From assembly GCF_021028975.2 (NCBI RefSeq), contig NC_059437.1, forward strand, positions 54,746,001 to 54,810,000: a stretch of 64,000 nt of DNA, read 5' to 3'. Every line of letters begins with the position of its first letter. Positions within the stretch are counted from its first letter, which is position 1. This stretch comes from Sphaerodactylus townsendi (taxonomy: Eukaryota). Below the pieces are notes generated by a model. It saw nothing but the letters and a program-made list of their open reading frames with translations. It did no database searches and was not told the origin of the DNA. The translations under genes were made by a program, and so were the position numbers. Positions 9,201 through 53,700 of the stretch are shown piece by piece.

Positions 9201-10360
9201 TGCTTTTCAGCAACGTAGAAAGTTGTAAAACACAACTTCAGTATTGAAAAATAACTTCAGTATGGTAGGAATGGCTGTATCTAAAACAATGCTCCCATTC
9301 TTAAGCACTGCAGACTCCAAATGCAGGGCTGGTCATATGTGGCCACGAGAATTTCTCCTAATGCAAGCCCCATGGAAACAAACAGCACATTCACTGCAAT
9401 GATATCGTTCATCTCTGTTTATTACAAGGACCCAAGCAGGATACGTTCTCAGTTGATGGCCACAGTGTTCTATATCCATACTCTGATCCAGTTCTCATGC
9501 TCCACTTTGGCCTATTCAGTGACTCTGACTCAGAATGTCTAGGGGAGGAGCAAAGGTTGGTGACTGAGGAGCACCAGAGGGACCAGGAAGGGCCCTGCAC
9601 TACAGAGCCACCTGCAGGTTACCCCTTCTCAGCATCCTCCTCAGCACCCTGCTGGAGCTTGTGAAGGAAACCTCGCCACCAGCCCCAAAATAGTCACCAG
9701 GCCTCTGCCGTGCAGAACTCAAACCTGGCCCTGTAGTGCCCCAGGACCCTCTCCAAATCTGCAGGAATGCCTACGCCAAAATGGCACAGAAGAAGTGAAG
9801 CAGCAGGTGGGCTCCATGCAACCTCACAGTACAGCTAGAGTAGTGCTCAGAGGGTGATTCCTTGCAGCATCCTGGCTGGTACACACAGCCAGCTCAGGAA
9901 CTCAGTAATGTGGCTGGGCCAAGTTACCTCCCAGTCAACTTAAGCCATGCCTGGGAAGACAGTCTTGCTGGATCAACCAGCTCACAAGTCCATAATTCTT
10001 GCCTGCTAGATCCAGTGCCAAATCCTGCCTCTTCCTGCACCCCAAGCTCTGCTCAGTGATCATCTGCAGGGTAAGTCCTGGTCCTTAAGGAGGCCAGTGG
10101 GAGCCTGAGGCTGGAACATCAATTAAGGAGATACATGTACACAAGGAACGCCTCTGTGCATATATTGGCTTCCAGATCAGGAACCATATAAATAAATCAT
10201 GATCCAAATCTGTATCTAAGTGTGCATGCTATCTAACCAAACTTAACTGCCTTTAATAAAAAGGGTTCAGATTCTGGCACAACCAACATGTTTACATGCA
10301 TTTGTAAAATGGGAATCCACCTTTTGTGGACATATGTAACACAGTATGTAATAGACTTCC

Positions 10361-10463
10361 CTCTGTGATATACCTCTGAAGATGCCAGCCACAGATGCAG
10401 ATGAAACGTTAGGAACAAGATCCACCAGATCACAGCCACACAGCCCGGAAAACCCACCACAAT
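10361..10463 (+). mobile_element. Penelope-like element fragment with a hammerhead motif (single arm)
   Basis: Same sequence as the arms at 43.4-43.6 kb and 48.8-49.0 kb; CCT-CTGAAGA...GAAACGTT-AGG. Confidence 0.75.
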
Positions 10464-11751
10464 CATTTGTAAACATTCTCTTTTACTTGAATAAGATTCT
10501 CAAGTCATACTTATCACATTTTGGCAGCATCCTTCCTCAGAAGATGGCTTCCTCAGTAATAGAGAATAATATCCTTTGTTTGGGATAAGCAAAACCTCCT
10601 TCTCCAAAATTCTGAGCACTGGCAATTCCTCCCAAACGAGAAAAATGCTAGCTACCAAGGTGACCCCCCCCCCCCGTCCCCTCCCCAAGTCCCAAGCAAC
10701 AACTGGGAGCTCCGTCAACTCTGGTAAAACCAGGAACAAAGGCACTCCCATGCATTTTCCGCTGGAGCACTCAAAGGGGCTGGTATTGCTTTTGCAAAGG
10801 GGAATTCACCCCCAGCCATCCGTGGAGATAATCAAGGTATGCTGGAACTGAAATAACTGTGATTTACTAGGTATGAGTATAGTTAGGGTTTCTTTCCCTT
10901 TGCAGAGTTAGCAGAACATTCCATATTTTCCTCTTCTATCTCTGGATTTTTAAGCAGTCCTTTCGCATCTTCTCCCTTTCGCTTTTCCCAATAAAATCCC
11001 TTCGCAGAACAAGAGTGTTATCCCTTGCTTTTCTTTCAGTATTTTTGCAAAAGTTGCAAACAAAAAATAGACCTATTAAGAAAGTATTTCTATGGTGGAG
11101 GGTCAGAAAGTACCTTTACCACTCCATCTGAAGTGTCTGGGGAGTTATGACACCATGCAAAAGTATTTATGGCACTCGAGAAAGCAAAAGAAAGAGCCCT
11201 GACGAAAGTTACCATTTTAGTTCCTTGTCTATTTACAGTAGCATGTAAATTTATTCCAACGGTCTCCACAGCAACAAGACTATGAAAACAGTTCTAACTT
11301 CAGACAAAACCTAACTGGTTGGGTACTGTTCCTGCTTTAACAGCAAAACAAAATATATATATACCTGGAAGGACATCTTCAGAATCTGGATGATTCAACC
11401 TTTTCTGGATCTATTGGAGACACAGGTTTGACTATTTATAGCAAGGTTCAACTCTGAAATGCATCACAAAGCCTTCTCTTCCCCTGTAGTGCCCTACAAA
11501 CAGTTTTGTGGACAGTAACACCCCATCATGATATGTTGTCCACCCCACCCCCACACCAACAGTCCCTATGTATCAGAAATGGCCACCATTTTCTGGTATG
11601 CTTTGCAGGTAAATTAGTGTTCATGTTTGGCCCCTAATTTTGCCTTTTAGGGGTGCTTTGCTAAAATTTCATTAGGGAGAGCTGCAAGGAATATGATTCT
11701 TCCGCTTTAAGCTTCCTCCCTAGGACTACTGGGGTAAATGTATTTATGGAC

Positions 11752-13451: not shown

Positions 13452-13753
13452 AAGAAGAAGAAGAAGAGTTTGGATTTATATCCCCCCTTTCTCTCCTGCA
13501 GGAGACTCAAAGGGGCTTACAATCTCCTTGCCCTTCCCCCCTCACAACAAACACCCTGTGAGGTAGGTGGGGAGAGAGAGCTCCAAGAAGCTGTGACTAG
13601 CCCAAGGTCACCCAGCCGGTGTGTGTGGGAGTGTACAGGCTAATCTGAATTCCCCAGATAACCCTCCACAGCTCAGGCGGCAGAGCTGGGAATCAAACCC
13701 GGTTCTCCAGATTAGATACACGAGCTCTTAACCTCCTACACCACTGCTGCTCC
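13452..13753 (-). mobile_element. tRNA-derived SINE (Squam3-like) with (CTT)n tail
   Basis: Reverse-complement match to the copies at 38787 and 43099; A/B box head at the right end. Confidence 0.85.
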
Positions 13754-37400: not shown

Positions 37401-40400
37401 CCACTGGAATTTTTAGTTGTTTTCCTGCGAGAACATACTTCTCTCTCACACACACCATGCCATATCACAAAGTGCTTTAGAAACATCCCTACATTTAAAA
37501 AGAGCAAAGTTACAAGCACAATCCCATATCTCCTATTGTGCACAAGGAGCTAAAGCGTGTGGCTCTTAGGAACCTGGCCACATTCTTGGTTGCCCCATTA
37601 TGTTCAATGAAAACACTTTACATTATGAACATAACCCAATTTTCACTCTATCGTAAATTATTTACGAACCGCAATACAATTCAGATTTAAGATAAATACA
37701 AACCTTTTAGGCTTTACTTGTATCTCTTGTCCATCTAGAGACAGAATCTGTGTGAAAACTTGCTGGTATCTTAAGAGTTCAATAAGGAATTGCCATTGTA
37801 TGTAGCAGAATGGAATTTCTTTTCACACATTTGTAACTAGCTCAAACTTTATGCAGAATATAAACTCAAAATCAGTGTTAACAAGATGGTGAGATTCTGC
37901 TTGAAAATATTACTTTTGCCAGTCTTTAAACCAGGGATCCCCATCATGGTGTCCTTGGGTGCCTGCCAATACTTTTTCTGGAATCCACTAAGGTTTTTTT
38001 AGGAAGTGGGTGGGGCCAGTTGGGGATTTTTGCCCAGGAAGTGTTCTTATTGGCTGTACGGATTCTTTGAAATGGGGCACAAGTATCTCCACTGGATTCT
38101 TGAAGTTAAGGATCTCCGCCTCCTGAGCAGCCATTTTGTTGTCGGTTCACCATGCTGTGTCAGAATTCCAGATGTGCCTGCAGGCATAAAAGGGTTGGGG
38201 ACCCCTACTTGAAGATGACAAATATGTCATGTCACCAGCCTTATCCGACATCAAGCAGCATTTTTAAGTACTGCATGAAATCTACTGCTTCTGGTGGATG
38301 GATTTATCAGTAAAACAGTAGGCGCTGCATAATTTAGGGCTGCAGAGGTCGTCTAAAAATATACAGATTTAATCCCGCTCTGTTTTAGCACTGATGGCAT
38401 TAAGTAGCAGTATTAACACAAATTTGACTAAATAGGATACTTGGGTACTTCCCATCCGTCTGTGAGCTGAGGATTTTCATTTAATATAGGTTGCCCCAGT
38501 TTATCAAGACAAAAATTGGTAAAATAGAACACACTCCCTATAACCTGTAGAAAGAGTCAGAAAGCGTCAGTATTTTCTCAAATTGAAAGAACACACATTA
38601 AAAATATACTTTAATACTTCACAAATCTCTATTCTGATATAAGTACATTAAAAGAATTGTTCTCAAGTTTAACGGCTGGCAAGTATGGTCATGCACTCCC
38701 TGCATTATGCTAAGCCAATTATTAAGAGGCACGATCTTCCGAGAGTTAGATATAACAAACTGCTATAATTAAGGCATGGCTATTTTGAGAGCCAGTGTGG
38801 CGTAATGGTTAAGAGCAGGTGCACTCTAATCTGGAGAACGGGGTTCGATTGCCCGCTCTGCCACTTGAGCTGTGAAGGCTTATCTGGTGAACCAGATTAG
38901 CTTGTGCACTCCAACACATACCAGCTGGGTGATGTTGGGCTAGCTCTCTCAGCCCCACACACCTCACAGGGTGTTTGTTGTGGGGGGAGGGCGGGAGGGA
39001 AAGCAGATTGTAAGCCCCTTTGAGTCTCCTACAGGAGAGAAAGGGGGATATAAATCCAATTCTCCTTTCTTCTTCCAGATCTTTCTGACAATTTTCTAGT
39101 GCCACTGCAGAAATCTCTAAGACTCATAAATGTGCATCACAAAATAAAAAAGTAACTTACGCTAAAAGCTTCTTTTGTTCTTTTGGCTGGATTTGGGTTT
39201 GTCACTTTACAGTCCTCTTCCAGCACAAAACTGGAGGGCTAAGAAGAAAAAGAAGTCACAGCTTGCACAACTGAGATCGCACTTCTCAAGCAAGGAGGTT
39301 CGTGATTCTGCCTCATCTCCCTTGTTGCCCTAAGTGTTAAATCCCTCCCAGAACACCTACACGGTCCCAATGCTCTTTCTTCCCCTTCAAATCCCAGCTC
39401 AAAGTAGCAATGTCTCCCAACACTTATGTGAACAGGGAAGGCCCTTTTGTGCATGGGAGCTTTCTGTGCATACTAGAGAGCACATGAAGTTCTAAATGTG
39501 TTCTACCAAACTGAAAAGGATTACTGGATGATTTAAGGTGCTCCCAACAAGATGTGTGATTCTCCTAAATGACAAGGTGCTTTGAAGCAGCAATGCAGCT
39601 TTGTGCGTTGTTTTAACGAACAGAAATGCTGTCCCATGACAAGTTTACATATTACAATGGTCAATTTTGACAATCAATCAGACCAAAGGAAAAAAAAACT
39701 TTAAGAAGAAAGTGTGCATTTTTTAATATTTTAGGAAGACACAATATACTAGAATTAGTCTACTTAAAGTAACTTCACAAAACAAGACAAAACTGAAAAA
39801 CATATTTCAATCACCATGTTTACACATAAGTATAATATAAACATACCTGTGGCTTAACATTGAAGTATGTCTTGTCAACTTCAGCTCTCTGTTGTTCCTC
39901 ATATCTCTGAACTAAACTAGATACAAAATCCTCTATTTCTTGATGATATTGCCTGCACAAGAGATTATGGGAATAGATAAGACTATTTGTACACCCTACG
40001 TGAAATGACAAAATGTGCATCTCAGACCATTCTTGTCTACATTAATCACGCTGAGAACTTTATTTCATAGATTTCTTTTGTGGACCTTGAAGAAGAGTTT
40101 GTAAATCCAATGGTAGCATTACAGAAATTCTCCCTTCCATGTTGAACAGAATTCCTGTATTCCTGAGGTGGGGGGAGGAGCTCCTCCTAACTCTAAAATG
40201 ACGCCCACAAACCTGAAAAACTAGAGTGGATACAAATCAATGAAAAGTCAGACTTCTGAATTCAATCTGATTTGTGAAAAGAAAAAAGTGTAAGTCTGCA
40301 TGTCAGCATCTCAGATCTCTGTTAAATATGTCTTCAGTTCTCTTCAGTTCTCAAATTAGGAATATTAACCATTTTCAGTTCTCAGTTCTCAAATTAGGAA

Positions 40401-43400
40401 TATTAACCATTTTCATCAACAACTACTAGCTTTTGCTTTGAGAACATTCTGGGCTTGTTAGCTAAATACACCCCAAAACACTAAATATTATGAGCAAATG
40501 TTCTGAATTGTTAGCTACTTTGTGTTTCTGGGTGTATCTGAAATTCGGGTATAGCAAGAATGTGATACATTATGGAACAGAAGTGAATACAAAATTGCAA
40601 TCCTGGAAAGAAATGCAACCTCATAGAGTGTGCAACCATTTCATTCAATTGTCATTTTAAAAACACTTTTAATTATTACAAGTGTTTAGGAATTTAATTG
40701 TTTAGGAATTAAACAGCATTCCAACAGGAAACTTGATTTCAACCACCCTACCCTGCAAGAAACTAGGCCAACTGTCAATAACCTCTCACCTTTAAACAAT
40801 CCCTACAACAGAAATCATCAACTTTTTTAGACCCAGAATACAAGTCTGCAACATAAGGTTTGCTTTTTGAACATTTATTAGATATAATTCTCTTTTTACT
40901 TTCTTTTTCCTCTTTTCTCTTCCCAACACAGTCTCCCTCTTAAAAAAGCCTACACACACAAAAGTAAATGGAACTACCACAACAGATGAGAGCTCCCTTG
41001 AGTTGGGTGCAATAAAAGTTGAAATCCACTACTTTATAGTGAACACCAAATCAGAAATTCCGAAAAAGCCAAAGTAAAACACACTTACTTTGAAATATTA
41101 TTGTTCATGAATAAAATCTGTAACAAAGGGCCATCATGTTTAGAGTCATTCAATATTAGTCCGCTAAAAAAAGAAACACATTGAAATTAAAGAACAATGT
41201 TTACCAAACAACTTTCATTTTGTTGAGTACACTTACTACACCTCAACAAAGTTCAACATAGCTATCTTATTTTACCTCAATATTAAATCTTTTTTTCTCT
41301 CCATACAGCATGCTATGAATAACTTATAGAAGTAACCCTCCCCTGTTGCTATTTAATATCAGTGAGGGTTTTGATTAGCAGATTTATATCTTTCCTAGTT
41401 TAAAAATGGAACAACCAGAACTGAAAATAATAATAATAAAAAATATAACAATAACACCTCAAGAAAGAAAAGTAATCAGAACCATCAGTTCCTTTAGAAA
41501 TCATCTAATGCACACAGCAAAAATAATTCAGTAATTATTTTTATTGCTACACATCCAAGAAACAGGAAGAGTCACAAGCAATTCGTGACCTCCCTAAGCA
41601 CTTGTGTCCAAAGCAGCTCTTTGCATCCAAGCTATCATGTCTCCATTAACTCACAAAATATCTGCAAAAAACTGAGCCATTTCAACAGAGGCGGAACGAG
41701 GGGGAACTGTGCTCGGGGCCTGCACGCATCCTGCGCCCCTACTGTGGCGGCATCCGCCTCCATTCCGTCCTAGAACGTCCTGCCACACCCCCTCCAGTGC
41801 TCCACCTGGGGCGTCGCGCCTCAACCTGCTGGTGCTATGCCACTGAATTTCAATATACCTTGGTCGTGTCAGTATTTTCAGTTTTCTTCTGAGTTCATGA
41901 TGTTAATAATTTGTTAAGGAATTTATGTTACATACTTGTCTGAAAATAAAATGTTTGAAACACCAGTAATTCCCCCTTGAAATACTGGTAATTCCCCCTT
42001 GGGGTAAAAAGGAAGTGAATAAACAATGAATAAACTCATTCCCACCCCCCAAGCAGTGCATTTTAAGATAATGTTCTTTTTGTATAGCTCTAGGTCAGTG
42101 GTGGCGAACCTATGGCACGGGTGCCAGAGGTGGCACTCAGAGGCCTCTCTGTGGGCACTCGCGCACAGAGTTCATCATGTGGGAGAGGGGTGGAAAATCA
42201 CACACACACACACATCTAGGCTGGCCTGGGCATGATCCTTTACCTGGGAGTAAGCTCGGTTGCTGACAAGGGGGCTTGCTTCTGAGTTAACCCTCCTAGG
42301 ATCGTGATTCACCCATTTGAAGCGTTGCACGGTTACTTCACCAAGCTTACTCCTGAGTATTGCGTGCCTCGGAGCCAACTGTTTTTTCTAACCTAAACCC
42401 TCAGCATTCAGGTTAAATTGCCGGGTTGGCACTTTGTGATAAATAAGTGGGTTTTGGGTTGCAATTTGGGCACTCGGTCTCGAAAAGGTTCGCCATCACT
42501 GCTCTAGGTGGACCTTGGTGCTAGTACCTGTTGGATTTCTGCATCAGTGGCAAGATTTAAAAAAACATGCTTTTCAATATTTCAAAGGCAAAAACAGAGA
42601 CAAGGTTACGGCACCTCAAATTATGGACTAAAAATGACAGCCTGAGGTATCCATCTCTGATGTCTCCACTTGAAAAATTTACTGTGCAATTTCTAGTCCT
42701 AAAAATCTGAGAGTAGTAAAGATATACTCAATATATACCCCTGGAGTTGTAGTTTGTGAAATACTTTAGCACTCATAAATAAAACATAGCAAAAATACAA
42801 ATGTGTCTATTCAAATATTAAAATCAAAATATCACAGTAAAAGGCCCTAAACAGGGTCCCAAACGTACATCAATGAAAATCACCAGATGATGGCACATAA
42901 AAACTTGTGCAACACTTTGAGACCCAGACGCGTTTTGGCCCAGTGGTATTGAGGTTAAGTTTCTGAACCTTTTTCTGCTGGCCATTGAAGGAGGCAACAC
43001 ATGCAGGTCAGAAAATATATATATACACAAAGAAATAATAATTATAAATAAGTGGTTGTTGTGGGTTTTCCGGGCTGTGTTGCTATAGTCTGGTAGATTA
43101 GGAGGTTAAGAGCTCGTGTATTTAATCTGGAAGAACCGGGTTTGATTCCCAGCTCTGCTGCCTGTGGAGGCTTATCTGGGGAATTCAGATTAGCCTGTGC
43201 ATTCCCACACATGCCAGCTGGGTGACCTTGGGTTAGTCACAGCTTCTTGGAGCTCTCTCAGCCCCACCTACCTCACAGGGTGTTTGTTGTGAGGGGGGAA
43301 GGGAAAGGAGATTGTCAGCCCCTTTGAGTCTCCTACAGGGGAGAAAGGGGGGATATAAATCCAAACTCCTCCTCCTCCTCTTCTTCTAGATCTTGTTCCT

Positions 43401-43936
43401 AACGTTTTGCCTGCATCTGTGGCTGGCATCTTCAGAGGTGTAGCGCACTTCTTCAGTGTGTAGCGCACTTCTCTCCGTGATACACCTCTGAAGCTGTCAG
43501 CCACAGATGCAGGCGAAACGTTAGGAACAAGACCCACAGACCACGGCCACACAGCCCGGAAAACCCGCCACAACCAGTGGAATCCGGCCGTGAAAGCCTT
43601 CGATAATACATTATAAATGAGCGCCACAGGAAGAGGGAGCTCTGGCAGAGGCCTCAGGGGGACGCAGGAGCGGGCCTGAGAGCGGGTAGGGCTGGGGAAA
43701 GGGCCTACGAGGCGGGTCGCGGATCCCCTCGGATCCCGCGCAGGCCCGGCCCGACCCAGAAGGATATTCTCGGCCTGCAGCTCCCTCACGCTCTCCTGGC
43801 ACTCCCGCAGCCGCTCGCGCAGCTCCTCCGTCTCCTGGTCGAAGCGGATGTGAAGCGGCTGCGCGGCCCCCGCCGCCTCGTCCGCGTCCAACTGCTCGAA
43901 GAGGTCGGGGTCGCCGAAGTCCACCTCAGCCGCCAT
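27629..43936 (-). CDS. ZCCHC8: ZCCHC8, zinc finger CCHC-type containing 8 (scaffold of the NEXT nuclear exosome targeting complex); complete, 14 coding exons, 2118 nt, 705 aa
   Basis: All 14 exons splice in frame; MAAEVDFGD start, CCHC knuckle CFNCGCEDHQMKDC, PSP motif RMRELGYPPGWL, C-terminal PFEFENMAESTGVYLRIRSVLKNSPRNQQKNKKASS. Confidence 0.97.
29133..29248. repeat. Perfect 58-bp tandem duplication
   Basis: TCAGCTGAGG...TAAGACTAC twice (29133-29190, 29191-29248). Confidence 0.95.
29719..29833 (-). CDS. ZCCHC8: ZCCHC8 exon 13
   Basis: GNSKSSSKRPSPNQSTHNPKRQKRNNADVPSADMELDS. Confidence 0.88.
30485..31070. mobile_element. Tc1/mariner(pogo)-type non-autonomous element with a nested L2 3' end
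   Basis: TIRs CCCTATTTTCCCCAAAATAAGAC / GTCTTATTTTCGGGGAAACACGG; TA on both flanks. Confidence 0.85.
30720..30970 (+). mobile_element. L2-type LINE 3' end with stem-loop and (TAAA)n tail
   Basis: CCGCCCAGAGCCCCTCGGGGATTGGGCGG...AAATAAATAAA; related tails at about 5165-5227, 26660-26720, 51310-51370 and 56793-56865. Confidence 0.7.
31855..31938 (-). CDS. ZCCHC8: ZCCHC8 exon 12
   Basis: EWRMFGSIPMQPSQQKDIFAHYLSTYRS. Confidence 0.92.
32807..32931 (-). CDS. ZCCHC8: ZCCHC8 exon 11
   Basis: (A)SPGGEVSEEESYQQNRCVSYDISKLVNYPGFNISSPSGVTD; TAG/GTGAGT. Confidence 0.92.
33976..34118 (-). CDS. ZCCHC8: ZCCHC8 exon 10 (PSP domain)
   Basis: EELQDALGVTDKTLPPFIYRMRELGYPPGWLKEAEMEKSGLTLYDGK. Confidence 0.95.
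34404..34588. mobile_element. GC-rich hAT-like MITE
   Basis: Termini CAGAGGCATAT ... ATACGCCACTG; degenerate TSD. Confidence 0.65.
34778..34920 (-). CDS. ZCCHC8: ZCCHC8 exon 9
   Basis: PRNAARINEKRKQFMEACGEASNQNFQQRYHAEEIEERFGRFKPGII(S). Confidence 0.95.
36162..36222 (-). CDS. ZCCHC8: ZCCHC8 exon 8 (CCHC zinc knuckle)
   Basis: PKPHCFNCGCEDHQMKDCPQ = CX2CX4HX4C. Confidence 0.95.
37704..37769 (-). CDS. ZCCHC8: ZCCHC8 exon 7
   Basis: YQQVFTQILSLDGQEIQVKPK(R). Confidence 0.92.
37770..38440 (-). other. ZCCHC8: U12-type GT-AG intron (ZCCHC8 intron 6)
   Basis: 5' GTATCCTA; branch-like TTCCTTAT about 12 nt from the AG; no long polypyrimidine tract. Confidence 0.8.
37932..38207. mobile_element. Old hAT-like non-autonomous element
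   Basis: Termini CAGGGATCCCC ... GGTTGGGGACCCCT; related remnants end near 6599 and 26396. Confidence 0.6.
38441..38544 (-). CDS. ZCCHC8: ZCCHC8 exon 6
   Basis: VIGSVFYFTNFCLDKLGQPILNENPQLTDGWEVP(K); followed by U12-like donor GTATCCT. Confidence 0.94.
38787..39075 (+). mobile_element. Full-length tRNA-derived SINE (Squam3-like)
   Basis: A box TGGCGTAATGG, B box GGTTCGATTG, body shared with other copies, CTT-rich tail; degraded relatives near 33580, 35165, 50760 and 62150. Confidence 0.85.
39161..39238 (-). CDS. ZCCHC8: ZCCHC8 exon 5
   Basis: PSSFVLEEDCKVTNPNPAKRTKEAFS; TAG/GTAAGT. Confidence 0.92.
39847..39952 (-). CDS. ZCCHC8: ZCCHC8 exon 4
   Basis: QYHQEIEDFVSSLVQRYEEQQRAEVDKTYFNVKPQ; CAG/GTATGT. 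Confidence 0.93.
41089..41163 (-). CDS. ZCCHC8: ZCCHC8 exon 3
   Basis: GLILNDSKHDGPLLQILFMNNNIS(K); AG/GTAAGT. Confidence 0.93.
41686..41845. mobile_element. GC-rich hAT-like MITE next to the ZCCHC8 exon 2 donor
   Basis: Termini CAGAGGCGGAAC ... GCTATGCCACTG; TSD CATTTCAA/AATTTCAA. Confidence 0.75.
41859..41901 (-). CDS. ZCCHC8: ZCCHC8 exon 2
   Basis: (N)HELRRKLKILTRP(S); AC acceptor after TTCCTTAAC branch; GT donor. Confidence 0.92.
42096..42501. mobile_element. Non-autonomous hAT (Charlie-group) element
   Basis: TIRs CAGTGGTGGCGAACCT / AGGTTCGCCATCACTG; perfect 8-bp TSD CTCTAGGT. Confidence 0.92.
43053..43609. mobile_element. Palindromic Penelope-derived element with two hammerhead motifs, interrupted by a SINE
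   Basis: Inverted arms; TSD ATTATAAAT(A/G)AG at 43041-43052 and 43610-43621; ends CCGTGAAAGCCTTCGATAATAC. Confidence 0.8.
43099..43386 (+). mobile_element. 5'-truncated Squam3-like SINE nested in the Penelope-derived palindrome
   Basis: Body matches the 13452-13753 copy; (CCT/CTT)n tail; TSD TAGAT at 43094-43098 and 43387-43391. Confidence 0.85.
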
Positions 43937-44250
43937 TTTAGGGCGGGCCGAGGAAGCGCGTCGCCGGCGGGTCAGCAGGCCGCGAGAGGGGGTGACGGCG
44001 ACGGGCCGGCCCGCGGGAGACGTCGGCGCCTCAGGAAGGAGACGGGCCTAGGCTAGGCAACCAGGTCTTCACGTCGACCGGGGACTCAGGAGGAACTACA
44101 ACTCCCGACATGCAACGGGATTAGGCCGCGCTAATTTCTTACCGGCCCAAGGAAACATTGCGCGATGGGGCTTGTAGTTCAACTTGTGCAGACATTGGGG
44201 TCATGTTCTCCGGAAGAGTGCTGCATGCTGGGATACGTAGTTTTAAAGTT
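43640..44250 (-). promoter_or_regulatory. ZCCHC8: ZCCHC8 CpG-island promoter with three ACTACA-type (ZNF143/THAP11) motifs and a YY1 motif over the start codon
   Basis: ACTACAACTCCC 44095-44106; reverse GAACTACAAGCCCC 44167-44180; reverse AACTACGTATCCCAGCATGC 44223-44242; AAAATGGCGGC over the ATG. Confidence 0.75.
43768..43936 (-). CDS. ZCCHC8: ZCCHC8 exon 1
   Basis: MAAEVDFGD...RELQAE plus 1 nt; followed by U12 donor ATATCCTT. Confidence 0.93.
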
Positions 44251-44544
44251 TGGCGGAACAAACAAGGCCCCTCCCCACCAGTTTGATGGCGTTTGCTTCT
44301 ACTAGGTATGGGTCTGCCATGTACAACGTGTAATTAACATAAATATCATGCGTCTATGTTTAGTCCACGTTATCACAATGACCAAAGCCGTGTCAACGTC
44401 TTTTATTAGGACCACATGCAAATATCACAAAACACTGTGCAAGCTTTCGAGTCCTTCAGAAATTTACCACAAAAGCATCTTGTGGAGACTTAAAACAAAA
44501 TGCAAAGCCCACTACGAACTTGAATTAGTTCTTACTTTTTTTTT

Positions 44545-44728
44545 TACCTGTCACATCACATATAGTTTATGGCAACCCCAGCGGGATTTTCCAGGCAAGA
44601 AATGTTCAGCTGCTGTTTGCCACTGTCTGCCTCCACATCACAACCCTGTTATTCCCTGGAGGTCTCCCTTCCAAATACTTGCCAGAGCTAACTCTGCTTA
44701 GCTTCTGAGATCTGACCAAGCTGGACTG
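44545..44728 (-). mobile_element. 5S rRNA-derived SINE (5S-Sauria-like)
   Basis: Reverse strand GTCAGATCTCAGAAGCTAAGCAGAG...GGGAGACC...GGAGGCAGACAGTGGCAAAC. Confidence 0.7.
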
Positions 44729-47175
44729 AGCTGCTTCTTACTGCGTCTGAAAAAGTGAGTTCCAACTCACAATATGTTGGAATAAATGGTGTTTAATCTT
44801 TAACGTGACCCTAGATTCCAGTTTTATTTAATTGGGCTAGGTTGTCCAGAACAGGTTTCAAACTATTTTCAAACTAGCAATCAAACAGCAGTAGTTAACA
44901 AGGTGCCAAGTTTATAACTGCACTTACGGAGAGGTAGATTTTTACTCAATTCACTTTCAAGCTTCATCCGTTCCAATGAATGAACTGGCACTGAGGCAAA
45001 AAGGTTGAACATACCATTTTAGCAGCTTTTTCCCCAACTTAAAATATGTGTTACATATAAATCAGCATTCAGAATCTAGGTGGCCAACTTCTACTAGGTA
45101 AAATAACATCTTGTTGCATAAAGCTGCCTGAAGATAAATGGCCAAAAAGACCACTTTGATCAGATGTTATCCTAGAAGAACCTTTGGCTAGGGAGGATAT
45201 TATATCACCAATGCACAGAAAAATTCAGTAATGCAACTTAATATTTCTAGAAGGAAAAGGCAACATGTTAAATTTCAAAAACAAATTTACCAAGTACAAC
45301 GGCCCTTTAATTCTTAAGTGGTGGGCTTCTGAAATTTCAAGCTCCCATCACCAGAGGGTAAGGAGAATTTACGCATCTTCACACACTTTTGTACACTATT
45401 TTTCAAAAGCAAAATTCCCTATACTGTCAATTTGTTTTTGAACATTTATCTATTATTGGCAATGGAAATGCTTCCTAAGTGGGGTGGCTTGGAAAAATCC
45501 TTTTGGGCTAGCAATTAACAGTACTTTCATTAAATACTACCTAGAAGTAATTTACACACATTTTGCTTTTCTTGGTTTTATTAATATGTTCAATAGTATA
45601 CAGCAACTGAGGCACTGATGCTAGGCAACTCCCATTCATCACACAGCATGTGTGAGCATAATTCTGTTTAAGACTACTTTTTAAAGTGTAGAAATTGGGC
45701 TGCACGAGTGTTTTGAATCCAGGGAAGGCTTTGGTCTCTACTAGGTTTGGTAATTTGGTAAAACCAAAAAGCCAGATCAGCTTTTTCTTTTACTGACAAA
45801 AACCAGGTATTCAAAAAGCTGAATACAGTTGGGGCCAATAACATTTGGCTTTAACTCCCTCCTCTCCCACATGGGCTTGGGAGCCAGCAGAGGGAAGATC
45901 TCCGTGCGTCACTGAGCAAACTCAGCCCCGCATGAAGGATCTACCCCTCTCGGATGCTCAAGCCCAACCACGAGCTACACCTGCATGCAGGATCTAACCC
46001 CCCCCCCCTGCTTTTCAAGTCCTGTGAGCCTTGAAAGGGATTAGAGAGGAATTGCTAGGTCAAATCTGGGATGTGGGGCTGAGCTAGTTCAGCACTGCAT
46101 GCAGAATCTGTCCCTCAGTGATGCTTGTCAAGCCCTTCAGGGCTTTGAGTGCAGTGCTGGGGGCAGTTCTCCCCCACACACTGTTTCCCAAGCCCGAGAG
46201 GAAAATGGTGGGCAGGAGAGAACTTAAAAATTCAAGTTTGGATTTTTAAACGCAAATATTTTCAGCAATACCTGAATAAAGCCGATGGATATTGGCTTTA
46301 TTCAGCTTTACCAATAATTTTAGGTAGAAGTTGGTTAGAAAAACCAAATCTGAAAGTTACCAATGTATTTTTTCGGTGCTCAAGCTTAGTCTCTACTACA
46401 CCGTGTTGTTGGCCCTCCAGAGTAACTGGTTGGCCCCTGTGAAAGACAGGATGCTGAACCAGATGGACAACTGGTCTGATCCAGTAGGGCTTTTCTTTTT
46501 CTTATACGTGTAGCATCCCAGCATACTATACAGACTGCATAAAAGTGTAGAGAGAAGCAATAGTGCTACTACAAGAAAAGGTTTGACTGGAATAGCTGGA
46601 GGCCATCTGTTTCTCTGACTTTGCAGATATTCCTGCTAGAGTAGGCACAGAACTTCTACATTACTTACAGAGTCTCCCCCTATTAGTGTGGGCAGATTGA
46701 AGCCCAGTCAAAGATGAAACAAGTTTTTATGCTGCCTCAAGCAGGGCACTGAAGAGGTAGCAAATTTCTAAACAAATCAAATATCTGCTGATCCAGTCCC
46801 AAATAAGTGAATTACCGTATCCCCCAGTGTAGTAATCTTTGGACTGGAGTGCAGGCAATATTACTCAGCTAGCAAAACCAGGAAGGAGCATTAGGATACC
46901 CAAAAATAACAAGCTAAATCTTATACAGTAAGGATTGGACATGTGTCACACATCTCATATGCTGCTGCCTTCTGCAATAACTGAAACAGAAATACAGATA
47001 ATAGATACAAATCATGAAAATAGAGATTTAGTAACTTTTACTGTTTGCTTCTGTGGTGGAATGAGCTTTTTCTAAACTGCAGTATGAAATCTCTAATAAA
47101 TTCTGTAAAATTAAGATCTGTAAGCAATTTAAGTGAGCCAGTGAAAGTAACAGTACTATTTGAGAAAAAAACATC

Positions 47176-47784: not shown

Positions 47785-50700
47785 CTAGAGCAAAAAAAAA
47801 AAGATGTTTAAAAAATGATTAATGGATTTGACCCAAAGAAAGGGATAAAGTCAACGGAACTGCTCACATGTCTTTATCTACTCCTTCAGCAAACACCTTT
47901 CACTCAAGAGAGCGGTCTTCCATGCATATCAACTGCACACACGAAGTAAACACTATCCATCCCATAATATACAAGGGGTAAGTTGAATCCATTCTCAGCA
48001 TACTTTTGCCTTGCCACAGTAATTCAAATTCAAAGACAGAATCTCCAGTAGACAACTGTCACATATAATTTTCCACAATGCAGTAAGCTTATCTCTGCAT
48101 TTAATGCAGTAAGCTTGCCTACTGACAATATAGTAAAAACAATCCCCTTGGGACTTCAAAACATTTCAGAACAATTAGTGACAACTTAACAAGTGATCAC
48201 AGATAACGTACCTTGATACCCATCAGTTTTCTAAATTTGACATTTTGGTCCTTATTTCCAAAGTTCAGTTTCTCCCAGATTTCTGCTGATTGTGATTTAT
48301 CCTGCAAAAACATAAGAACGTGATATGTGTGTTGTTTTCAGCCAACTAGAGTTTATAGATAATGCTACCAAGGAGTCAATGTTTAAGACATGCAGCACAT
48401 GGGAAACAACTCACAAATCTTAACAAACTTTCAGAAAAAATCTGTGTGGAAGCCTGCTTAACCTCTCCATTCACTTCAAAAAGAAAGAGCTGCAGGTCTT
48501 CTGGCCAGGCAAGTTATATTTACAACCCATAGTTACTACAAAACAAATATCCTTGAACTGCTTATAAGGAGGCTGTTTTAAACATCAGCCAATCAAATGC
48601 AGAACATATTGCCTCTGTGTTCAGACAAGATTCTTGAAGCTGTGATGAAAACAAAACCCTCTGGTAGCATTCTCTAAATCCTAGATTTCTAAGGTGCTAG
48701 AATCCTAACTTCAAACCTTGTACTTGCAGAAGCATTACTACCAAATGGCTAAATATTTCAGGAGTAGGATGTTGTGGGTTTTCCGGATTGTATGGCCGTG
48801 TTCCAGTAGCATTTTCTCCTAACGTTTCACCTGCATCTGTGGCTGGCATCTTCAAAGGAGATCCTTTGAAGATGCCAGCCACAGATGCAGACGAAAAATC
48901 AGGATAAAATGCTACTGGAACACAGCCATACAACCCGGAAAACCCATAACACCATAGTGATTCCGGCCAAGGAAGCCTTCAACAATACTTCAAGAGTGTG
49001 TTTGCTGATAAAGGGCCCCTTCTTGAAACACGACGCACACATGACATAGAGGTGTGTGCTTTTATGAATTGACTTCCATGAACAAATCAGAGAAACTAGG
49101 CACAAAATTACCCCTTCTTTTTTGCCTTGCCACAGCATTTTCCGCTTCTTCTCCTGTTCTGCAAACTTCATTGGATTCACTGCTGCTGGGTTATAATAAC
49201 TTGGAACAGCTATTCCTGTCTCTGCCAAAGCCTTTGCCTGCAGGGCCGCCATTTGAGCCGCCATCGCAATCTGAGGAGTGACCTGTGTCCCGGAGGCCAG
49301 GAGAGCAGCGACGTTGATGACAGAACTTCCAGTAGCAGCTGCCGCTAAAATAAACATTGACATTTTATACAAGAGAAAGCATTTAACCGTTCCCCACCTT
49401 GATTAGACATGAGAAAAACATAACCCACAATATTCACAAGAATTTGTACAAATTAGGCACCTGCCAAGAGTAAGAAGCTTTCAGTTGGTCACCACTTAGC
49501 ATTTGCCTGATGGTGCAACTATTTTGGGGCCTGACTGAAAGAGTCCTAAAAACACAGCTTTAGAATAGCATTGCTTCCTACAAAACTGCCAATAATTACA
49601 ATAAAACAAAAGTTACTTTCTTTTTTTAAAGTTTTCCATTTCAAAGTTACTATTTTTCTAGTTCTATGGTAACTTATTTTTTCTGAAGTAGAATTTGTCA
49701 CAGATTCATAACTATTACGCCAACAGCTGAAAAAGAATTACCAGCAACCATTTCCTGTTGCTTCTGTTTTTCAACAAGCTCTTTCTCCCTCTGTTCTTGA
49801 AGTTTTTTTGCTCTCTCCAATCTAGAAATAGAAATGCAGAAGCAATGAGTTAATAAAAGATTTTTATCTTGTCCCACATTAGTTAAAAATGCCACCACCG
49901 ACCAAGGGTGAACAACATGCTATCTCTGAAGTGCCTAGCTGCAAAATTTAAACTCTAGATCAGTGATTCTCAACCAGGGTTCCGTGGTACCCTGGGGTAC
50001 CATGAGCACGTCCCAGGGGTACCATGACAATGCTACTGCCTGCCCGCCCCCCACCGGAATCAAATGGATTTTGAAAGGGGGGGGGTTTGGAAGCTTCATG
50101 GGCTCCCTTTAAACAACACTGCAAAACAGCATTGTTTTATTTGCCTAAATTCGGTGTACACTGGGGGGGGTGCGGGGTAGATTTAAACGGAGCTCTCCCT
50201 TTAAATTCCCCCAATCCATGTTGAATGTAGGCAAACAAGCAACGCGGCTGTCAATGCTGCTTTCCCTCCCCTCCCCCTGCTTGCCACTCCCCCCACCTAC
50301 AGGCCAAAAACGGAAAAAAATCTAAAAAAAATCTAAAAAAATTCAAATGAACCTCAGGGGTACCCTGAGATATGAAGAGTGAGGTCAAGGGTACCACGAT
50401 GTCGAAAAGGTTGGGAAACACTGCTCTAGATACTAAGATTTTTTTAATAGCTTAAACAGCTTACTGCATTTCATTATTTCAGGGTTTGGGGGGGGGGAAG
50501 GCTAACTGCAGTATCCATGAGTCAAAATTCATTAACATGCAATATTTCTAGCTTTCAGATCTATAAGACAGACTGTACTGTCAGTGCATGCTCAGGAACA
50601 AAATGGTTTTACATGGACCTTCTAACAATTCTCTGCCCCATTAAAACAGCTGCACTGATTGTCAATTGAATTCTTGGTGATATTCAAGGTGTTGGTTATT

Positions 50701-53700
50701 ACCTTTAAAGCCCTACCCCACTCCTCCACATGAGCTGTGGAGTCTTACTTGGTGAACCAGATGTTTCTCCACTCCTACATTCCTGCTGGGTAACCTTGGG
50801 CTGGTCACAGTTCATTCAGAATTCTCTCAGCCCCACCTACCTCACAAGGTGTCTGTTGTGAGGAGAGGAAGGGAAAAGGAGTTTGCAAGCTGCCTTGAGT
50901 CTCCTTACAAGAGAAAGGGGGGTAAAAATCCAAACTCTTATCTAAGGGACCACCTCCTCCCATATAGTCCCCCGCAACTGCTCCGCGCTTCATCAAGCAG
51001 TTCACTGAGGGTATCAGGACCCTGTGAAGTATGTCTCCCACCAGGTCTAGAGCACTTTCGGTGGTAGCTCCCTCCTGGTGGAATGCTCTGTGGGGGAGAT
51101 CTGTGCCCTACTGGATTTATCTCAGTTCTACAGGGCCTGCGAAATGGAACTCGTCCAACAGGAGTTCCTCCAGATTTATGCCACTGGTTTGGTCTGTTAC
51201 CCTCAGTGTAACTGCTGGCCAGTTTGATGCCTATGACTCCTAGTGCTGAATACTGTTATGCTGGAATAAGTTTTAGTTTTTAATTTTAATTTATACCTTG
51301 TGATATTTACTGTATTGTAAACCACCCTGAACTTTGGAAGGATGGTACAGAAATCTAATAAATGAATAAAAATGATGGTATTAGATTTCTGCAGAGATCT
51401 GTCTCTCTCTTATGCATCCTGATGGACCTTCACCTTGCCATATCGCATCTACATCAGATCTCTTCCATTTTGAGAACCTCACTAATAAAGTCTTACAACT
51501 TCAAAGCCTCAATTGGCATAATCAATAATAAAGTCAAAGATTTAGATATTTTCTGAAAAGGTGCACCTGCAGTATTACAGAATTAACATTAGCGGGAGGA
51601 GAATGGTGACAACTGCCCTCTCAAGGCTAGAATGCTGCAGCACTACTTCATTATAAAGTTAGTAAGCCGTTAATTTCCATATCTTCAGACAAAGAAAAGT
51701 CTATACCTTCTGGCCAGAGCTTCTTGGGCATCCATTGCTGTATTTCGCCCCCTAAAGGGTGGAGGGCTAGGCGTTCTGCTGTGACTTCTGCTGAATCTTT
51801 TGGGTTTTTCAGGTCTCTTCTTTCTTTCTCTACAAGCAGGCATTTTAAAACATGTTTCAAAGGAAGTTTCAAAACTGTTCATGGTTGTTTAAATAAATTA
51901 ACCTTCATCTAACTGCCATGATACACTCTTAATTTCAAAAGTGCTGTAGCCACCCCATGATGGTCACTTCTTTACAAAAAGCAGACAAACCTACCTGCTT
52001 CTACTCCTGGTTCTGCTCCTGCTCCGACTTCTATGCCTGTGTCTAGATCTTGATCGAGAACGTGATCTTACACGCCGCTTTTTATCTCTGCTTCGAGAAC
52101 GTGACTTTTTTCTATCACGGCTTCTACTACGATGACGCCTGAAAACACATTCCAAATTTCTTATACTTCCCAGCTTGACAATTCTCTTTTAATTGAAGCA
52201 AAATACAATTAAAACATTACACTGTATTTTCGCAGTAACAGAAGTTGATATATTTTTCGCTTCTCATCAACAAACAGCACATTCATCTAAAAAACCAAAT
52301 CAATGACCTGAACTCTACTAAGTATTTCCAAAACATAACAGAAATTATTTCAGAATTGATCAAAGAGGATCACAGTAAGTGGTAATTCAAGACTCTGACT
52401 GTCCAAGTCCAATTAGCAGATGAAGTGCTTGAGGGTATCAAACAAGTCACACAAGCATCGTGACAAAAATATCACATTGGCACTCCAATTCTAACACACA
52501 AACCTGCCAAAGAAATGCTGGAGCAAACATTCAGGGCATTTTCATTTCATTTCATTTTAACCTTTAATGGCATATAATTCAGGGCATTTAATTCATGAAA
52601 AATTAAACTAAATTAGTCAGTAATAAATTAATGCTGGAGACTTTAAAATTGCATACTCCTTCTAAGCAGCACACAAAACTTTTCTCAGAATCCCTCAAAA
52701 AAAGTCATAACCATCAGAAGAAAGGTTATCCAAAAAGTGCTAAACAATCTACCTTTCACGAGACCTAGACCTTGAATGACTCCTTCCTCTTGAGGATTTT
52801 CTCTCTTTGCGCTTATGCCGATCCTCACCATTTTCGGAGGTACTCAGGCTGTCTCTTCCTTTGTCAGAAGAGTGCTCTTTGTCATTATGGTCTTCCGATT
52901 TGTGCTTTTTGGATGACTTTTCTTTGGACCCGTGTCTTCTTGCCTGTTTTAAGAAGAAGTTGGTTCTTTCAGGAAAATAGTGCAACAAAGAGAGTTAGTA
53001 TGGGCATCAGTAGATAAAGAATGATATGTTGTGATGCAACATTAGTAACCTTAGGAGTGTGGGCCAGTCAACTGTAATGGCTTTAACACCACCATCTACC
53101 CAATGTTGCATATTCGCACTATCATTCCTCCCCCCTCTGCTATCCTCCCCATTTAAACCTTTTATGCAGCCTGGTTCTCATACCAAGACTGGCTTTACAG
53201 CATTGTACAGAACAGTCCCTCTCAATGATTGGTTACACTAAGTATAGTGGTAAGAAAATGGCTCTGCTTCCTAACAATACAAAGAGGATGGGATGGTGAC
53301 AAGTAGTAACTGGTGAACACATCAGCAACTATGAAGATAACTTGAAAGTAGCTCTATAGGCCATCCTTTGAGAGGCACTAACAGTTTGTATTTGCCAGGC
53401 ATCTTCAGCTGTAAAGTCTTAAGTAACAGGTAGTCAATATGACCAGACTACATTATTTTAAGCACGTTGTGCTCATGTAGTTTGGTTTCACCCACACTAT
53501 TTGGTGGGACTATCTGCAGGCATCCCTCTTGGCAGTACATTTTATATGTACACATTTCTTCCCCCAAGACTAAAAACCCTACATAAAAATAAGGGTAAAT
53601 CTGGTTGTCGCCTCAACCTAAACCTAATAAAAAACACTGTGCATGTTTACAATTCATCAACTTGCTGCTGAAGTCAGTTACATTTAGACAGCATGCATCA

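Follow-up and report, generated by a model that had tools for sequence, protein, structure and literature searches.

The window, the whole 64,000-nt stretch of Sphaerodactylus townsendi DNA that was analysed, carries two exons of a gene which, judged on its sequence, is a reptile-type ZCCHC8, separated by a putative minor intron:

43768..43936, minus strand: ZCCHC8 exon 1, coding part (56 codons plus 1 nt)
41902..43767, minus strand: ZCCHC8 intron 1, U12 AT-AC type, 1866 nt
41859..41901, minus strand: ZCCHC8 exon 2, 43 nt, in frame with exon 1

Exon 1 matches the human ZCCHC8 chains 7s7b_B and 7z52_A (E 1.1e-4); exon 2 gave four chance matches only against solved structures, and its identity with the human exon is putative. 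The intron shows a U12-type 5' splice site (ATATCCTT), a branch site (TTCCTTAAC; TCCTTAAC, near the AC end) and exons that join in frame, splicing being predicted from the sequence. It encloses the insertion at 43053-43609, in agreement with the location in a ZCCHC8 minor intron given in the earlier note, and this insertion starts 158 nt downstream of the 5' splice site. Its parts are, in forward-strand order:

43041..43052, plus strand: left copy of the target-site duplication (TSD), ATTATAAATAAG, AT-rich and starting ATT
43053..43098, minus strand: left arm of a Penelope-like element (PLE), outer part (ORF +39 to +84), with a tail-less terminus at 43053
43099..43386, plus strand: later SINE, 288 nt (267-nt body plus CTC/CTT tail)
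43392..43442, minus strand: left PLE arm, inner part (ORF -13 to +38), 5'-truncated at -13
43443..43453, no strand: inversion junction, a local duplication after a shared GTGTA (period 20, 2.1 copies over 43429-43472)
43454..43576, plus strand: right PLE arm (ORF about -40 to +84), one C missing after 43536
43577..43609, plus strand: 33-nt PLE 'tail' (ORF +85 to +117), right arm only
43610..43621, plus strand: right TSD copy, ATTATAAATGAG

Compared with the right arm, the left arm is identical at 37/46 columns in its outer part and at 48/51 in its inner part, and it is without the 33-nt extension at 43577-43609. The inner arms (43391-43442 and 43481-43532) are 94% complementary across 52 nt, so that the palindromic, inverted arms of the earlier note are confirmed, as is its 12-bp TSD with one mismatch (11/12 identical between 43041-43052 and 43610-43621). 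A related organism (organism D) has A at 43619 in the right copy, which gives a 12/12 match, and no empty, pre-insertion site was seen among the joints listed in the relatives' contigs. The description of all of 43053-43609 as a palindromic cassette holds for the head-to-head arms but not for the full length, since 288 of the 557 bp are SINE; the unit before the SINE measured 264 bp.

On sequence comparison, the SINE at 43099-43386 is an insertion later than, and unrelated to, the PLE arm. It has a 5-bp TSD of its own (TAGAT, at 43094-43098 and 43387-43391), and it is 91% identical to 13452-13738 and 78-79% identical to 38807-39083 and 50735-50937 in the same window; PLE family copies free of the SINE join 43080 to 43387/43393. 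Squam3 SINEs are described as having a tRNA head, a partial CORE, an L2-like 3' end and a (CTT)n tail, with 267-271 nt in Squam3B3 (PMC7983390). The 267-nt body and CTT-type tail thus suggest a Squam3B3-like SINE, by length and tail as compared with the published description only; the 5-bp TSD is a difference from that family, which seldom has TSDs (PMC7983390). The shared AGATCTT that follows the SINE at 39083 was considered as a second SINE-in-PLE case, which was rejected.

Each PLE arm of the insertion contains one hammerhead motif, and the two lie on opposite strands:

43398..43438, minus strand: minimal type I hammerhead motif, sense to ZCCHC8, with G12->A and the ORF ATG kept at 43429-43427
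43485..43525, plus strand: minimal type I hammerhead motif, antisense to ZCCHC8, with A9->C and a GUU cut site after 43522

The minus-strand copy reads CCT CTGAAGA T GCCAGC CACAGAT GCAGGC AAAA CG TT AGG and the plus-strand copy CCT CTGAAGC T GTCAGC CACAGAT GCAGGC GAAA CG TT AGG, an exact match to the layout, positions and strands first proposed, and both reported lesions (GAAA to AAAA in the sense copy, CUGAAGA to CUGAAGC in the antisense copy) were seen. G12->A corresponds to C>T at the CpG 43408-43409, and A9->C also abolishes the ORF ATG at 43494; with G12A in the sense arm and A9C in the antisense arm, neither motif of this copy has an intact catalytic core. The minimal type I layout is supported, with one correction: helix I has 3/3 pairs in 5/5 window arms, and helix II has 5/6 pairs with an A.A mismatch in 5/5. 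The sense arm is without distal helix I, being truncated at -13 and interrupted by the SINE. Relative to the Poseidon element of Anolis (PAc), helix II shows one one-sided change and one broken pair, and no two-sided change. A possible A-U/G-C exchange in a distal helix I is a by-eye hint.

The search with hammerhead models that the earlier note had proposed was made with motif descriptors and with Rfam. A relaxed descriptor, permitting one of the two core changes, found only two sites in the 64 kb, both of them here, and none in 100/100 first-order random sequences of equal length; as it was composed after the motif had been seen, this control speaks for non-randomness and says nothing on function. 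The strict descriptor found no site in the 64-kb window (0/5 arms pass), and an Rfam scan of 42000-45000 returned no hammerhead among seven matches at E<=10, which fits a motif lacking a stable helix III. The Rfam matches to mir-1295, mir-609 and mir-938 fall far below the gathering score and reflect the hairpin only, and a microRNA reading was rejected.

Several features relate the arms to Penelope elements of the Poseidon type. Indeed (i) the right arm matches 91/126 nt (72%, counted by hand) of the PAc template across the pLTR-ORF junction (PMC11167929), in keeping with the Penelope origin first suggested, (ii) helix II opens with an ATG, and 26 nt further on comes the cut site, as in PAc (PMC11167929), (iii) the window arms end within, or 33 nt before, the PAc reverse transcription (RT) start at +111 to +118 (PMC11167929), and (iv) an inverted, 5'-truncated copy lies beside a direct copy, with a 33-nt tail between two fixed RT start sites and a short TSD in AT-rich DNA. 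The RT start sites on PAc RNA were demonstrated in vitro, PAc cleaves AT-rich DNA at ATT, and its hammerhead cleaves only with its protein, insertion needing no cleavage (PMC11167929). The present family shares with PAc two fixed end sites, +117 being the outer one and the other lying 33 nt away, and an AT-rich target that starts ATT; it differs in that the main subfamily has GUU (PAc, GUC), in the A.A at helix II pair 4 (PAc, U.G), in a different pLTR upstream of helix I and in being present here only as ORF-less stumps. Typical PLE insertions are described as an inverted pLTR with a 30-40 bp tail and a TSD, and EN+ Penelope elements (Adineta Pen2a and others) as having head-to-head inverted copies, a short TSD, an optional 30-40 bp tail at one end, microhomology or a palindrome at the junction and a pLTR that spans the first ORF codons (PMC3846280, PMC8557442); compared with these, the present insertion is miniature (264 bp before the SINE) and without ORF body. 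Minimal hammerheads of metazoan PLEs, already reported for reptiles, likewise have a long helix II, a short helix I, an extra base between 9 and 10.1, G10.1-C11.1 and a palindromic 15.2-16.2, and occur as opposite-strand pairs 100-700 bp apart with low activity even as dimers; the difference here is that both copies carry a core mutation (PMC4209133). The literature searched yielded nothing on gecko Poseidon or Penelope elements and, among the matches listed, nothing on this palindrome in lizards; the family may already be catalogued in Repbase/Dfam or, as reptile motifs, in the supplements of PMC4209133.

Two further copies of the family are present in the window:

10340..10465, plus strand: second copy, a solo arm (ORF about -42 to +84), core intact, helix II broken
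48767..48988, no strand: third copy, a SINE-free head-to-head pair of a second subfamily, with ends at +83 and +117

The third copy has TSD-like flanks identical at 8/10 positions. All five window arms end at one of the two sites (+83, +84, +84, +117 and +117), the tail end at 43609 recurring at 48988. No RT gene and no autonomous member of the family, which would pair an RT with a C-terminal GIY-YIG endonuclease, came to light: the ORF start read from 48730-48849, some 28 residues of the element and 12 of flank, was compared with proteins and had no match among four candidates, which is weak evidence. The family is very high-copy: summed contig depth in the set X1 reaches 2.1e7 on the arm and 98 on the unique flank (values that are not a copy number), and it drops about 30-fold past 43612. 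Family-wide, loose ends at 43576/43578 run on into unrelated, AT-rich sequence (X1, 244+170 contigs; X6, 298+144), and many other copies are palindromic, with opposite-strand and skip joints in the contigs. In the family majority CUGAAGA, the ATG, the C that is missing here and a CAA codon are all present, giving an open 39-codon frame. Among the rows listed it has A9 at 93-97%, G12 at 81-84% and GUU/GUC, so that CUGANGA, GAAA and NUH are all kept; the lack of this core in a consensus had been named earlier as speaking against the ribozyme. The majority A at 43494 stands at 93-95% in DNA contigs, and the cut-site triplet of the main subfamily is GUU, with C making up 15-19% of the DNA contig depth. 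Across copies, the loss of G12 keeps to the rate of CpG sites: A takes its place in 16% (X1) and 19% (X6), and ten other CpG rows compared give 7-21%. A relative diverged by about 7% has the same junction of tail and flank. Under a bridging rule of 31 letters, one of four non-self junction contigs qualifies (organism D, 32 letters at the right junction), the other three overlapping the element by 26-28 letters.

With the head-to-head geometry, each strand has one ribozyme whose own complement is transcribed first, and on either strand the ribozyme is therefore predicted to be captured in the 52-bp stem while it emerges. The predicted stem reaches -100 kcal/mol (z -15) and lies 230-380 nt into the U12 intron. 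The predicted pair probability of helix II in the nascent pre-mRNA (sense) is 7e-23, the other value being 5e-29, and folding the ribozyme within the transcript is predicted to cost 54 kcal/mol (sense) or 70 kcal/mol (antisense). The suggestion that a long hairpin sequesters the sense ribozyme in the pre-mRNA is thus what folding predicts. Taken alone, the five arms have no better predicted fold than shuffled sequences (z from -0.3 to 1.7), as expected for minimal motifs. In this model, the pre-mRNA would carry a double-stranded hairpin rather than a cleaving ribozyme and, with both motifs core-mutated and predicted to be zipped against each other, the locus is likely inert. Within a slow U12 intron, a sense ribozyme with an intact core would be able to cleave the pre-mRNA, but the head-to-head geometry predicts self-silencing on either strand. 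In RNA runs of a relative, family reads numbered 5971 and 7788, both strands about equally, and the unique flank at 43621-43660 had no reads in the 6% and 19% portions of two runs, which speaks neither for nor against expression of this copy; no RNA run was listed as containing the locus. No depth step marked copies that begin at the cut site, a comparison confounded by subfamily divergence.

The most convincing reading of the locus, and one that is very probably correct, is a head-to-head pair of 5'-truncated Poseidon-type Penelope ends. One arm bears the 33-nt tail, one arm took up the SINE later, and 12 bp of the target are duplicated; the pair likely goes back to one old integration and is now likely inert. 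An autonomous element's protein would have nicked AT-rich intron DNA, and uncleaved RNA would have been reverse-transcribed from two fixed internal starts (ORF +117 and +84; in vitro for PAc), back through the hammerhead into the pLTR, with an early stop. The two short products would then have been joined in inverted orientation where they share a few letters, with priming either from the two nicked strands or from a product folded back on itself, the hammerheads being passengers, one per pLTR end. After insertion, the 264-bp unit would have decayed, the SINE would have landed in it, and G12 would have been mutated in one arm and A9 in the other.

The earlier note had seen in the locus a retrozyme-like family with ribozymes in both polarities, and this was not borne out. 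Non-LTR retrozymes resemble the present family in being short, non-coding, PLE-related and provided with type I hammerheads (PMC7229834, bioRxiv 10.64898/2026.07.22.740005), but they are described as head-to-tail tandems with canonical hammerheads, from which circular and linear monomers are released (PMC7229834), whereas the two arms here stand head to head and each strand has a single ribozyme, predicted to be blocked. Tandem units, each with a complete hammerhead, are absent from the 64-kb window, and the insertion is therefore not a retrozyme; among the rows listed, no RNA joints indicated circular or linear monomers, in libraries unsuited to circles. A small non-autonomous palindromic element (retrozyme- or MITE-like), copied as a unit with ribozymes on both strands, would agree with the two window insertions, of three, that are palindromes of 220-265 bp without an ORF and with common outer ends, with the many palindromic copies elsewhere, with the C3->U common to both arms of 48767-48988 and with the existence of non-autonomous PLE derivatives (bioRxiv 10.64898/2026.07.22.740005). 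It is nevertheless very unlikely: the two palindromes belong to different subfamilies and have different centres, one window insertion in three is a solo arm, the fold-back joints listed after 43438 resume at at least seven different places (43497-43505, 43537, 43583), a palindromic transcript would block its own ribozyme, and RT start sites at fixed positions account for the constant outer ends. As the fold-back points vary, the palindromes likely arise per insertion; together with the solo arm and the differing subfamilies, this variation fits the published by-product of PLE integration better than a unit-copied palindrome (PMC3846280, PMC8557442).

Two other readings grant the insertion present activity. 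Its hairpin might have been co-opted, with an effect on how ZCCHC8 pre-mRNA is spliced at the minor intron, edited (A-to-I) or degraded, as could be argued from the strength of the modelled stem, from human ZCCHC8 being among the genes most affected on minor-splicing failure (PMC4667643) and from a tail-flank junction present in relatives; its retention in a rate-limiting intron across related organisms leaves room for a function beyond what folding predicts. Such a role is very unlikely in view of the arms, which differ from each other at 12/97 columns and show CpG-type decay, of the at least three other repeat insertions in this intron and of the 5' splice site, which has a predicted pairing probability with the element of 0.0 at 9/9 bases. 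That one ribozyme still cleaves in vivo, aided by the element's protein or by a dimer partner, is extremely unlikely. Cleavage of the PAc hammerhead when protein is added (PMC11167929) and abundant family transcripts in a relative speak for it; against it stand the hits of G12A and A9C in the conserved core, the missing distal helix I of the sense arm, the hairpin capture and, weakly, as the libraries are fragmented, the absence of any RNA-end pile-up on the arm in 2/2 runs of a relative.

The locus is thus likely an ordinary decayed stump of a very common Penelope-type retrotransposon, and as a single locus it is of little consequence. The two fixed RT start sites demonstrated in vitro in Anolis Poseidon are, on the other hand, confirmed by genomic ends alone in a second reptile lineage, and the family's many junctions are usable data on how PLE inverted repeats form. 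As a tentative and rather doubtful idea, reptile stumps might record how Penelope builds its inverted ends: copies of the main subfamily would break off at about -40 to -42. A small CACAG/CTGTG hairpin precedes the hammerhead closely, and on its 5' strand, at this point, the fresh cDNA end would turn back on itself and prime the second strand. If this were true, junction counts in stumps would tell fold-back from two-strand priming, and the stumps would mark the true RNA start of the element.

The 557 bp at 43053-43609, in intron 1 of ZCCHC8, is to judge from its sequence two insertions, a head-to-head pair of 5'-truncated Penelope-like element (PLE) ends of Poseidon type and a SINE. The features concerned are the following (window positions):

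43767 to 41902, minus strand: ZCCHC8 intron, with 5' start ATATCCTT and with TTCCTTAAC 11 nt upstream of its AC end
43099-43386: SINE, flanked by a 5-bp duplication of its own (TAGAT); other stretches of the window match it at 91% and 78-79%
43398-43438, minus strand: hammerhead of the left arm, sense to ZCCHC8, G12A
43485-43525, plus strand: hammerhead of the right arm, antisense, A9C

Other family copies join across the SINE position in the relatives' contigs. The SINE fits Squam3B3 by its 267-nt body and CTT-type tail, a likeness drawn from the description in PMC7983390 and not from an alignment. Without it, 264 bp are left, namely a left arm of 97 nt, a junction of 11 nt and a right arm of 156 nt, the last 33 nt of which are absent from the left arm; the arms differ in 12 of 97 columns, and at the centre junction 20 nt are locally duplicated around the shared GTGTA.

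Both hammerhead motifs proposed in the earlier note, with their core changes, were recovered at these coordinates, as were its inverted arms (the inner arms are complementary at 94% over 52 nt) and the 12-bp direct repeat, with one mismatch, on both sides of 43053-43609. A descriptor tolerating either core change found two sites in the window, both of them these motifs, whereas 100 random sequences of similar composition contained no site. As it was composed with the motif already known, this result shows that the pattern is not due to chance, and says nothing on function. A strict hammerhead descriptor found no site in the window, and an Rfam scan gave no hammerhead match at 43053-43609. Helix II carries an A.A mismatch in all five arms of the window, and both arms of sufficient length are predicted to form a distal helix I.

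The Penelope origin is supported. Indeed, (i) a hand count gives 91 of 126 identical nt and a single gap between 43485-43609 and the RNA template of Anolis carolinensis Poseidon (PAc) printed in PMC11167929, against which helix II differs by one change on one side only and by one pair that is broken; (ii) PAc is described as having its ORF start where stem II begins and its cleavage 26 nt past the start codon (PMC11167929), and the right arm has its ATG at 43494 and its cut after 43522; (iii) PAc reverse transcription is reported to start at ORF +111 to +118, the 30-40 nt tail being the stretch between two starts (PMC11167929), and in ORF numbering the arms end at +84 and +117 here (lost C counted), +84 at 10465, +83 at 48767 and +117 at 48988; (iv) the layout, a 5'-truncated copy in inverted orientation together with a single tail and a short TSD, is that described for a typical PLE insertion (PMC3846280; PMC8557442). 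Pairs of minimal hammerheads on opposite strands, 100-700 bp from each other, have been on record since 2014 (PMC4209133). At 43576/43578 the relatives' contigs show hundreds of loose ends that lead into unrelated AT-rich DNA, and depth drops about 30-fold after 43612. The three bases that follow +117 in the PAc template are ATT, as at the opening of the right TSD (43610-43612), which leaves the right end uncertain by 3 nt; a 3-nt primer-template match there is possible. The 48988 end lacks the ATT continuation. A protein search with the ORF start found no autonomous element of the family.

The earlier note had read the palindrome as a retrozyme-like unit, which is not borne out, as head-to-tail units are absent from the window. 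The three insertions found there are one solo arm (10340-10465) and two palindromes of different subfamily and centre, and joints leaving 43438 resume at at least seven different places (15 joints listed, 1231 more; the short contigs give no frequencies). Because of the solo arm, the differing subfamilies and centres and the varied fold-back points, an origin of palindromes anew at each insertion is favoured over copying as a unit. For the inversion itself, both nicked strands would prime, as PAc is reported to extend both (PMC11167929), or the cDNA would fold back and prime itself, as proposed for PLEs (PMC3846280); the studied copy is compatible with both routes. In the main subfamily, the two arms that have a long 5' side both end between -40 and -42, on a small inverted repeat (CACAG/CTGTG), where weak pairing is predicted for the solo copy's cDNA end (-2.8 kcal/mol); with n=2, this 5' stop is only a lead as to how the inversion forms. 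The solo arm, whose 5' end lies on this hairpin, has a possible 9-bp TSD (CATATGTAA / CATTTGTAA). The second-subfamily palindrome at 48767-48988 has no SINE, and some 120 nt separate it from an exon of the adjacent gene, which from its peptide we take to be RSRC2; its arms probably come from one template, since C3->U is common to both.

Concerning activity, both cores are mutated, and the sense arm ends at -13 and is interrupted by the SINE, and so has no distal helix. The proposed sequestration of the sense ribozyme in a long hairpin agrees with folding prediction: on either strand the ribozyme's complement is transcribed ahead of it, predicted helix II pairing in the nascent pre-mRNA is 7e-23, and the predicted cost of folding the ribozyme is 54 (sense) and 70 (antisense) kcal/mol. 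Published minimal hammerheads are described as lacking activity as monomers and having little as dimers (PMC4209133), and the PAc hammerhead as requiring its own element's protein and being dispensable for in vitro insertion (PMC11167929). In one relative, two RNA runs with 5971 and 7788 reads of the family gave no pile-up of read ends, a weak negative. We infer that this copy is inert.

The host gene is supported by exon 1 (43936-43768, minus), which matches human ZCCHC8 chains (E 1.1e-4). By its terminal sequences, 43767-41902 is a predicted minor (U12 AT-AC) intron, and the 43-nt exon that follows keeps the reading frame; human ZCCHC8 is listed as a minor-intron gene (PMC4667643). To judge from the repeats in the window, the host organism is probably a lizard. 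The intron carries at least four insertions. At 42096-42501 lies a MITE, presumably hAT-like, with 16-bp terminal inverted repeats (CAGTGGTGGCGAACCT) and a perfect 8-bp TSD (CTCTAGGT), and at about 42790-42946 a further, lower-copy repeat, with contig depth 10- to 50-fold over flank in all four runs. Upstream of ZCCHC8, a weak 5S rRNA-like match (44633-44745, minus; Rfam scan, E 0.022, below gathering) is possibly a 5S-derived SINE.

Single contigs carry the tail-flank junction in three organisms compared (B, C and D); D, a relative about 7% diverged, has the left junction on one as well. Under a bridging rule of 31 letters, only the right junction of D is bridged (32 letters of element), the others having 26-28. 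In D, 29 of 423 letters differ at the junction contig and the right TSD is perfect. No empty, pre-insertion site was seen among the joints listed for the relatives' contigs.

Furthermore, the family is a very abundant repeat in all four organisms compared; in DNA run X1, contig depths sum to about 2.1e7 on the arm and to 98 on unique flank, figures that do not give a copy number. Among the rows listed, the family majority letters restore CUGAAGA and the ATG, put back the lost C and leave a 39-codon frame open, and A at 43494 holds 93-95% of DNA depth. G12 is A in 16% and 19% of depth, values within the 7-21% seen at the 10 other CpG rows compared, so that its loss across copies fits neutral decay. 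In the second subfamily the triplet is GUC, and the sequence surrounding the ribozyme differs. At position 43522, this GUC subfamily makes up 37-44% of RNA reads (X23, X24) versus 18% of DNA contig depth (X6) under the same organism label; it may be more expressed or younger, or reads and contigs may weigh copies differently.
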